A DNA stretch of 10,943 nucleotides from a virus. Taxonomy: Duplodnaviria > Heunggongvirae > Uroviricota > Caudoviricetes. The stretch lies in IMG/VR virus record IMGVR_UViG_2681813225_000022. The stretch is one strand, 5' to 3'. Positions 9,902 to 10,943 of the stretch are shown piece after piece. The notes beneath the pieces are model-generated. The model saw nothing but the letters and a program-made list of their open reading frames with translations, was not told the origin of the DNA and searched no databases. The translations under genes were made by a program, and so were the position numbers. Position 1 is the first letter of the stretch. The number at the start of each line of letters is the position of its first letter.

Positions 9902-10510
9902 TCACTGGTTGCCTCCTTTGCGAAGCTGGTCGGCGAACAAACGTACACCAGACGCTTCACTGCGTAGAAACTTAACGGCATCATCAAAACCACCTCGTTC
10001 TGCGTCGTCTGCTCCGTTGTCGAGGTTATCTGCGTACATCTCTACCCCCTGTGCCCGTACTTCAGCCAGGCATTTGCGAAACTCGGAAACGTACTGTTCG
10101 ACGCTCATTCCCCAGCTAAGTGGACATTCATTGAATGTTTCGCCTTCGTGCTCTTCATCAGGTAACTCTTTGGTAAAGAACTCACGCTCAATGGCGTGGA
10201 GTGTGTCAGCAAAACGACGTAAGTTACTCAAACCTGTCGTAATGGAGAATTCAGGAGCATCACATCCGACGCCCATCTGCTGATAAACTGCGGTTTTGAA
10301 GGCCTTCAGCCCCGCATTCTCCGCCGCCAGCGCCGCGCGACTGGCTTCCAGTTCTGTTATGCGCTTGTTGGCTGCTTCCCGTTCATCCAGCAGCGCCAGC
10401 ACAATCGATGGTGTTACCAGCTCATGGAAAAGGTCCGCATCAAATCCCCAGTCGTCATGCATTGCCTGCTCTGCCGCCTCACGCAGTGCCAGTGTGTCGA
10501 TGTTGCTCAT
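9902..10510 (-). CDS. Ea22-like prophage protein: lambda Ea22-type N-terminal module with a divergent coiled-coil/acidic C-terminal region (199 aa from the Met at 10510)
   Basis: MSNIDTLALREAAEQAMHDDWGFDADLFHELVTPSIVLALLDERE closely matches the lambda Ea22 N-terminus as I recall it; the remainder diverges. GAGGAGG SD 4 nt upstream of the ATG at 10510; that ATG overlaps the stop of the upstream remnant ORF (ATGA). The track's longer ORF (start 10534) is less likely. Confidence 0.78.
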   Translation of the reverse strand: MSNIDTLALREAAEQAMHDDWGFDADLFHELVTPSIVLALLDEREAANKRITELEASRAALAAENAGLKAFKTAVYQQMGVGCDAPEFSITTGLSNLRRFADTLHAIEREFFTKELPDEEHEGETFNECPLSWGMSVEQYVSEFRKCLAEVRAQGVEMYADNLDNGADDAERGGFDDAVKFLRSEASGVRLFADQLRKGGNQ

Positions 10511-10581
10511 TGTGCCTCCTCGATTTCGTCCCATTCCACCCAGGCATTCTCTCCATCAGCATCTATTTCACCTTTGTGAGC
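10507..10581 (-). pseudogene. 3'-terminal remnant of the prophage gene upstream of the ea22-like gene, truncated by IS insertion
   Basis: Minus-strand frame reads ...AHKGEIDADGENAWVEWDEIEEAQ* with the TGA overlapping the ea22-like ATG. The frame has no start and runs into the IS left end. Confidence 0.5.
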
Positions 10582-10653
10582 TGTAGTGGCACACTGAATT
10601 TGGCCACCTGAACAGAGGTGATATGCTCACCTCAGAACAACACAGGTGCTCCA

Positions 10654-10943
10654 ATGAAAAAAAGAAATTTCAGCGCAGAGTTTAAACGCGAATCCGCTCA
10701 ACTGGTTGTTGACCAGAACTACACGGTGGCAGATGCCGCCAAAGCTATGGATATCGGCCTTTCCACAATGACAATATGGGTCAAACAACTGCGTGATGAG
10801 CGTCAGGGCAAAACACCAAAAGCCTCTCCGATAACACCAGAACAAATCGAAATACGTGAGCTGAGGAAAAAGCTACAACGCATTGAAATGGAGAATGAAA
10901 TATTAAAAAAGGCTACTGTAGATTCAATTGGTCAACGCAACAG
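10654..10943 (+). CDS. IS3-family transposase OrfA (HTH/leucine-zipper N-terminal protein), 3'-partial at window end
   Basis: ATG at 10654; translation [87 protein letters not shown]... is recognisable as IS911-group OrfA. Absent from the ORF track because no stop is reached in the window. Confidence 0.85.
10905..10911 (+). promoter_or_regulatory. Programmed -1 ribosomal frameshift heptamer A-AAA-AAG in orfA
   Basis: A AAA AAG lies in the orfA zero frame (codons tta aaa aag), the canonical IS3-family/IS911 slippery site for producing the OrfAB transposase. Confidence 0.65.

Follow-up and report, generated by a model that had tools for sequence, protein, structure and literature searches.

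The right end of the window (the whole 10,943-nucleotide stretch analyzed here, IMG/VR record IMGVR_UViG_2681813225_000022) very probably records a succession of IS events inside a prophage that continues past them. A lambda-type prophage sits between ybhC and ybhB, at the lambda attachment site. An IS911-like element would first have entered its zinc-ribbon gene by ordinary transposition between codons 54 and 55, duplicating 3 bp, and IS30 would afterwards have split this element 5 nt downstream of its frameshift heptamer. An IS629-associated deletion would have followed in the lineage of the complete genomes that share the junction. The correct annotation of the end of the window is a gene remnant at 10507-10581, a 335-bp IS911-like fragment, and 27 bp of IS30, not a prophage end. 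The structure is nothing new in kind: it is already present in public complete genomes, where its pieces are annotated as partial transposases. It offers a worked example of the decay of a cryptic prophage through stacked IS insertions and IS-associated deletions, in which the order of events can be read because sister lineages have kept complementary junctions.

Prophage arm and attachment site

The window covers the Escherichia coli chromosome around the lambda attachment site and aligned with 99.98% identity (2 mismatches over all 10,943 bases) to E. coli OkiPb01679 (L001). From left to right, it carries a truncated ybhD, ybhH, ybhI, a frameshifted ybhJ, ybhC, the attachment core, and a leftward-reading prophage arm (Table 1). 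In OkiPb01679, ybhB was found at the opposite end of the prophage. The core and an integrase gene thus lie between ybhC and ybhB, the arrangement that defines the lambda attachment site.

Table 1. Features of the prophage arm and the IS junctions at the right end of the window
Feature	Position	Strand	Description
ybhC	5764-7047		Borders the attL core on one side
attL core	7094..7108	+	GCTTTTTTATACTAA; exact match; between ybhC and int; left end of the prophage at the lambda attachment site
int	7182..8252	-	Lambda-type integrase, intact, 356 aa; ORF; PGAP 'tyrosine-type recombinase/integrase'; Pfam Arm-DNA-bind_1 and Phage_integrase
xis	8230..8446	-	Lambda-type, inactivated; 2-bp deletion at about 8366
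PHROG 3680 gene	8537-8848		103 aa; prophage arm
LprI-family gene	9073-9771		Prophage arm
ea22-like gene	9902..10510	-	202 aa; PF13935 Ead_Ea22; PGAP 'ead/Ea22-like family protein' at the same place in OkiPb01679
Zinc-ribbon gene remnant	10507..10581	-	Start-less; PHROG 4446; last 23 codons and stop codon of a phage gene for a CxxC...CxxC zinc ribbon (77 codons)
IS911-like fragment	10582..10916	+	Left 335 bp of an IS911-like IS3-family element; rest of the element absent from the window
IS30 left end	10917..10943	+	Inverted repeat TGTAGATTCAATTGGTCAACGCAACAG; 27/27 identical to K-12 IS30A annotated in NC_000913

The initial annotation, made from the sequence of the window alone, had described xis as broken, and this was confirmed. 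The indel was placed by comparison with E. coli CFSAN004176; the reading frame switches between MYLTLQEWNARQRRPRSLETVRRWVRE and RIFPPPVKDGREYLFHESAVKVDLNRPVTGSLLKRIRNGKKAKS, after ...RRWVRE, and PGAP labels the gene 'frameshifted' in OkiPb01679. For the ea22-like gene, the PF13935 match (E = 2.8e-11; 44.6 bits against a cutoff of 27) covered residues 2-68 of 202 only, and the C-terminal two thirds matched solely PHROGs of unknown function. An Rfam scan of the whole window returned naRNA4 at 5625-5695 as its sole match and nothing in 10507-10943. A repeat search of 9800-10943 identified short chance matches only, with no second IS end and no duplication.

The IS911-like element and the interrupted zinc-ribbon gene

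The left IS boundary was located at 10581/10582. When 9800-10943 was used as the query, many E. coli records from unrelated contexts matched only from query base 783, corresponding to window position 10582. The left inverted repeat begins at this base (TGTAGTGGCACAC...; further TGTAGTGG...), and the sequence from 10582 reads TGTAGTGGCACACTGAATTTGGCCACC. The orfA gene starts with an ATG at 10654 and encodes an HTH_Tnp_1 domain (PF01527; E = 2.6e-13) at residues 1-74. An A AAA AAG frameshift heptamer could be read directly at 10905-10911, at the end of orfA. The heptamer is therefore present, but the window holds no orfB with its DDE domain, and its copy of the element is a dead fragment.

A complete copy was identified at the same locus in CFSAN004176 (L005 9368-10616). 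It is 1249 bp in length and departs from the window at 2 positions in 335. Its two ends have their first 8 nt in common as well as a GGCCACC block, and they conform to TG...CA. An ORF of 279 aa occupies the position of orfB, and PGAP describes the locus as 'IS3 family transposase, programmed frameshift'. This copy shared 91.3% identity over 1247 bp with a copy that PGAP names 'IS3-like element IS911 family', in agreement with the IS3-family, IS911-like assignment made initially, and the fragment in the window matched K-12 IS911A at 303/335 positions. From these alignments, the label IS911-like appears accurate for a relative of IS911 rather than IS911 proper, as near-identity to the PGAP-named copy was not seen. 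The element shares with IS911 (Shigella and E. coli) its TG...CA ends and a helix-turn-helix orfA that closes with the A AAA AAG heptamer, and its left repeat is nearly that of IS911 (TGTAGTGGCACACTGAATTTGGCCACC here, TGAAGTGGCACACTGAATTTGGCCACC in the PGAP 'IS911 family' copy). A putative 3-bp target duplication, described below, would be a further likeness. It differs in the third base of both ends, which is T rather than A, and in that the copy in the window is merely a 335-bp fragment without orfB.

The minus-strand translation of 10507-10581 is AHKGEIDADGENAWVEWDEIEEAQ*; the closing TGA and the ea22-like ATG share bases (ATGA), as read directly in GCACAATGAGC, written also CAATGAGC. When 10507-10650 was translated on the minus strand, the frame remained open upstream into the IS and contained no ATG and no TTG; between the upstream stop and the end of this ORF, the sole start-type codon was a GTG that precedes the stop by ten codons. 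The idea that the remnant is a whole short gene with another start codon was considered and rejected, this GTG being the sole candidate. The description of a start-less remnant that overlaps the ea22-like ATG and runs into the IS was accordingly upheld, with no usable start and a defined boundary. The IS end is not intergenic, falling instead at codon 54/55 of 77 in the gene that immediately precedes the ea22-like gene, where the initial annotation had placed it.

The initial annotation had taken the remnant for part of a prophage gene, and a tblastn search with its peptide agreed: two phages matched at 92%. In one of them, phage phiv142-3, the aligned region is the terminal part of orf36, and the next gene downstream encodes a 'putative EA22-like protein'. 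An intact homologue was found in a prophage of E. coli CEC15 (L002 3167-3400), immediately upstream of an ea22-like gene; it encodes 77 aa with two CxxC pairs (MSIRTEHGFGPSTVEVEWLDDCPKCQHGKAKVTGWSVTKDSLWAGDEAVCSKCGHKGEIDADGENAWVEWDEIEEAQ). In a DNA alignment, the window tracks this intact gene up to codon 55 and then diverges into the IS, which identifies the interrupted gene directly. The zinc-ribbon gene was matched by phrog_4446 (E = 7.9e-23), a PHROG of unknown function. A rubredoxin-like name was dropped, the Pfam score of 18.2 bits lying below the cutoff of 26.5.

For the ea22-like gene, the ATG at 10510-10508 is the true start, with GAGGAGG just upstream, inside the remnant. Judged from this arrangement, the 23-codon remnant would preserve the putative ribosome-binding site and start of the ea22-like gene, which would be separated from the start of the zinc-ribbon ORF and from everything further up the leftward operon. 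A consensus promoter scan of 9700-10943 identified no promoter-like site that could act as an outward promoter for the ea22-like gene from the IS side, and the one terminator-like site in the same interval was at chance level. About 2.2 kb of IS DNA (3.4 kb in the CFSAN004176 lineage) lies between the early-left promoter region and the ea22-like, LprI-family and PHROG 3680 genes.

The initial annotation had offered two origins for the left junction, insertion into the gene or deletion across it. The prophage also occupies this site in CFSAN004176, with 99.8-99.9% identity to the window, and the complementary junction was observed there. The right end of its IS adjoins ...AAATGCGGT, encoding ...SKCG, at codon 54 of the zinc-ribbon gene, and matches to uninterrupted genes start at L005 10617, the base that follows the IS end. 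The 162 nt in CFSAN004176 and the remnant in the window, less 3 nt, add up to 234 nt, the length of the intact gene, in frame, and the rebuilt 234-nt gene differs from the CEC15 allele at 5 positions. Between the two flanks there is a 3-bp overlap, assembled from two lineages as the window contains a single junction, with a difference at the middle base: GGT in CFSAN004176 (N-terminal side) against GCT in the window (10579-10581, minus strand) and in every relative checked. Because the two junctions fit together into exactly the 234-bp gene once a putative 3-bp target duplication is allowed for, the evidence favors a simple insertion between codons 54 and 55 of 77 over a deletion. The first of the two proposed origins is thus retained, with codons 1-54 at the other IS end in CFSAN004176, and the second is set aside.

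The paired junctions are the signature of one insertion in a common ancestor, of which each lineage would have retained one side. None of 5426 complete genomes carried both IS911-like junctions, and the right junction was found only in CFSAN004176. Against the history as a whole stand the mismatch between GGT and GCT, the piecing together of a simple insertion from two lineages, and the end of the visible sequence of the source genome at base 10943.

In CFSAN004176, the left IS junction corresponds to window position 10167, with 413 bp missing relative to the window; its lineage appears to have lost these 413 bp beside the IS after the insertion. Adjacent deletion therefore does occur at this element, and together with the imperfect 3-bp duplication it could suggest that the left junction in the window was also made by an IS-mediated deletion, from an IS that landed elsewhere in the early-left region to codon 55. 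However, the right end in CFSAN004176 lies at exactly the complementary codon, a base that such a deletion would have reached by coincidence, and we regard this origin as very improbable. A relative date may also be given. Draft assemblies that share this left junction, down to the GCT, retain an intact xis and an intact ybhJ, so the insertion would be older than the lesions in these two genes.

IS30 within the IS911-like fragment

Both IS3-family and IS30 elements move by copy-out-paste-in transposition via circular intermediates. The initial annotation had treated 10582-10943 as IS911-like throughout. This holds for 10582-10916, whereas the last 27 bases are IS30, whose left end begins 5 nt after the heptamer; the window ends inside it. 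This second boundary, like the first, was observed directly in the window. In OkiPb01679, nt 1-518 of IS30 are present and 100% identical to IS30A. Where this site of the host element carries a full IS30 copy, AC/AC borders it as a 2-bp duplication. As IS30 separates orfA from orfB, the IS911-like copy cannot make its transposase, and a fused orfA'-IS30 reading frame, 122 aa in relatives, is left behind.

A 67-nt query across the IS911-type::IS30 junction was matched (coverage of at least 80%) in 2086 of 5426 complete genomes, on chromosomes as well as plasmids. The same AC dinucleotide is occupied in two IS911-type variants that are ~90% identical, each of which also exists uninterrupted. This distribution fits an IS30 hot spot, as it might also fit the spread of an old composite. 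IS30 is known to favor specific hot-spot sequences and to make 2-bp duplications (PMC9333248). Tentatively, and at somewhat less than even chances, the AC located 5 nt after the heptamer, in the context AAAAAAGGCT-AC-CGCGCTCTTG, may be a strict natural hot spot for IS30 in IS911-type elements that has been struck repeatedly and independently. The copy in the window would be one such fresh, independent instance, because IS30 is absent from the corresponding IS911-like insertion of a sister lineage. Were this so, one insertion sequence would systematically disable another. The junction is of mild interest: IS30 occupies an identical dinucleotide in two diverged IS911-type elements, and more than one-third of complete E. 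coli genomes carry the junction.

Alternatively, the IS911-like element may have arrived with IS30 already in place, as a composite of roughly 2.5 kb mobilized in trans; IS30 excision, or gene conversion from another copy, would later have yielded the uninterrupted form in CFSAN004176. The abundance of the junction in complete genomes is consistent with such a composite, and a copy in a prophage at the icd site (L006) is closer to the 335 bp of the window than the CFSAN004176 copy is. The icd-site copy differs from the window solely at the private base of the window, a T at 10775 in orfA that distinguishes it from the 4 other copies compared and accounts for 1 of its 2 differences from OkiPb01679; the CFSAN004176 copy differs there and at one further position. 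However, a single base is too little to decide between the two, and a composite requires an extra event, the precise loss or conversion of IS30. Given the hot-spot preference of IS30 (PMC9333248) and the occupation of the same dinucleotide in two ~90% identical types, independent insertion is at least as economical, and arrival as a composite is considered unlikely, though a serious contender.

A well-known counterpart to the IS30 insertion is found in CP4-6 of K-12 (IS911A::IS30A, insN / insI1), where IS30 has the same orientation and occupies the same AC, 5 nt after the heptamer. In both cases the host element is inside a cryptic prophage. The chromosomal site and the prophage differ (CP4-6 in K-12, the lambda attachment site here), and the host element also differs, as a variant that PGAP calls ISEc52-type, with 32/335 mismatches between the window and K-12 IS911A. 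In K-12, IS30A is complete and is followed by part of its host element, whereas in the lineage of the window IS30 is cut after nt 518 by IS629.

Continuation of the prophage in relatives

Five complete genomes (2014C-3011, SMN013SH2, SMN152SH1, SMN197SH3, and OkiPb01679) were 99.9-100% identical to the window over the junction, the best matches among complete E. coli genomes reaching 99.9% over the junction query, and the junction was also found in several independent draft assemblies. The same nest, IS911'-IS30'-IS629-traR', was observed in all five complete genomes and is identical in each. In OkiPb01679, the 518 nt of IS30 lead into a complete 1310-bp IS629 (named after the annotation of phage BP-4795, to which it is 97.9% identical), followed by a traR/dksA-like gene without its last 13 bp. 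The three bases flanking IS629 differ (tta and ctc). These unequal flanks and the missing DNA point to an IS629-associated deletion, which would have taken what remained of IS30 and of the IS911-like element, together with codons 1-54 of the zinc-ribbon gene and a second ea22-like gene of 233 aa that is still present in CFSAN004176.

Past IS629 in OkiPb01679, about 8 kb of prophage extend up to espJ and ybhB. A hypothetical gene, dam, DUF1317, exo, and a bet remnant fused to a ninG remnant come first, followed by a phosphatase gene, Q, a holin gene, remnants of lysis and tail-fibre genes, espJ, and ybhB. CFSAN004176 and one metagenome contig (L010) likewise run on into the same prophage genes. 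The claim that the prophage is truncated at the IS was therefore too strong, as all five genomes with the three-IS nest retain this 8-kb portion. The suggestion of a decaying cryptic prophage agrees well with the gene content of OkiPb01679 and CFSAN004176. The prophage is cryptic and heavily eroded, about 13.5 kb in size; it is not truncated at the IS and cannot be a working phage.

The window itself is most likely a short-read contig bounded by repeats: it opens with the terminal 23 bases of an IS1-family element, the one that interrupts ybhD in OkiPb01679, and it stops inside the end of IS30. Two of four draft contigs aligned to the window stop at 10915, at the IS30 junction, and among 92 index blocks with the ea22-like protein, the longest contig carrying it was 10-20 kb in 41. 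More generally, windows bounded by IS termini are probably repeat-bounded contigs, and what lies beyond them must come from complete relatives.

For the genome from which the window derives, which was not among the complete E. coli genomes searched, we infer a continuation like that of its relatives. The window stops at 10943, and with about 21-25 matching IS places per relative genome, a larger deletion or inversion that brought non-prophage DNA next to the IS is plausible in principle. However, the five complete genomes with the junction all continue alike, as do CFSAN004176 and the metagenome contig, and a true prophage end at this point is very improbable. The chance that the junction itself is an assembly artefact, a contig end falsely joined to a repeat, is close to negligible: the window does begin and end in repeats, where short-read assembly is least reliable, yet the junction recurs base for base in five complete genomes and several independent drafts.

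The gene order of the prophage is that of the lambdoid early-left region (the ea22 region, xis to exo), reading leftward as int-xis-small accessory genes-ea22-like-...-dam-exo-bet, and phage phiv142-3 and the CEC15 prophage both have the same pair of zinc-ribbon and ea22-like genes, in which the stop codon of the first overlaps the start of the second. It departs from that region in carrying up to four ISs across lineages (IS911-like, IS30, IS629, and IS600), in its broken xis, and in the fusion of bet and ninG as remnants.

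IS30 insertion site within IS911-type elements

Two IS911-type variants that share only ~90% identity both carried IS30 at an identical AC dinucleotide (window positions 10915 to 10917), as seen by comparison with E. coli K-12 (IS911A::IS30A), the IS911-type::IS30 composite of a prophage at the icd site (L006), and the sister lineage E. coli CFSAN004176, where the IS911-like element is complete. In both variants, this dinucleotide lies 5 nt past an A AAA AAG heptamer. Of the 5426 complete E. coli genomes, 2086 contained a match covering ≥80% of a 67-mer that spans the IS911-type/IS30 junction, and both variants were also found without an IS30 interruption. 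Together, the identical site in two diverged variants, the number of genomes carrying the junction, and the uninterrupted copies suggest that IS911-type elements contain a natural hot spot for IS30.

At position 10775 the window has a T, where all four of the other copies compared have a G. In the IS911-like OrfA, this base, private to the source of the window, replaces an Arg of the helix-turn-helix region with Ile (MTRW to MTIW).

Prophage decay and retained genes

Decay of the prophage in CFSAN004176 took a different course from that in the window lineage. Its 413-bp deletion removed the zinc-ribbon gene remnant and shortened the ea22-like gene by its first 114 codons. The prophage on a metagenome contig (L010) carried the same IS30′/traR′ deletion as the complete relatives of the window but without the IS629 found there, and ~9 nt of the IS629 flanks were also missing (ATCAGGATG joined directly to TTTACTGAT). 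This junction resembles the product of an imprecise IS629 excision; however, as the contig has many small indels, it may instead be an assembly artifact. Three of the genes listed below (PHROG 3680, LprI family, and EspJ family) are candidates for retained cargo of the eroded prophage. The LprI-family gene is predicted to encode a protein with a hydrophobic, signal-peptide-like N terminus.

Features of the prophage in the window and related sequences
Feature	Sequence	Position	Remarks
IS600	CFSAN004176 (L005)	6378-7643	Between xis and PHROG 3680 gene
413-bp deletion	CFSAN004176 (L005)	9367-9368	Adjoins left end of IS911-like element
IS30′/traR′ junction lacking IS629	ENA ERZ1759873:contig_288 (L010)	5041-5110	
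PHROG 3680 and LprI-family genes	Window	within 8537-9798	Both intact, between xis and ea22-like gene
EspJ-family type III effector gene	OkiPb01679 (L001)	29796-30449	Far prophage end, adjoining ybhB; present in complete relatives

Flanking chromosome and window ends

The ybhJ gene of the window is a pseudogene; relative to the intact gene in CFSAN004176, it has lost 1 bp from a run of A residues (position ~3352) and 2 bp at a second site (position ~4952), and PGAP labels ybhJ of OkiPb01679 as frameshifted. Within the ybhJ-ybhC spacer (5554 to 5748), a sequence of ~100 nt is present in two overlapping copies that are 93% alike, and positions 5625 to 5695 matched the Rfam nucleoid-associated RNA family naRNA4 (63.2 bits; gathering score, 59.5).

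Positions 1 to 23 (ttctactaattggatgcactacc) correspond to the terminus of the IS1-family element that splits ybhD in OkiPb01679. With this terminus at the start and IS30 at the opposite end, the window appears to be a repeat-bounded short-read contig.
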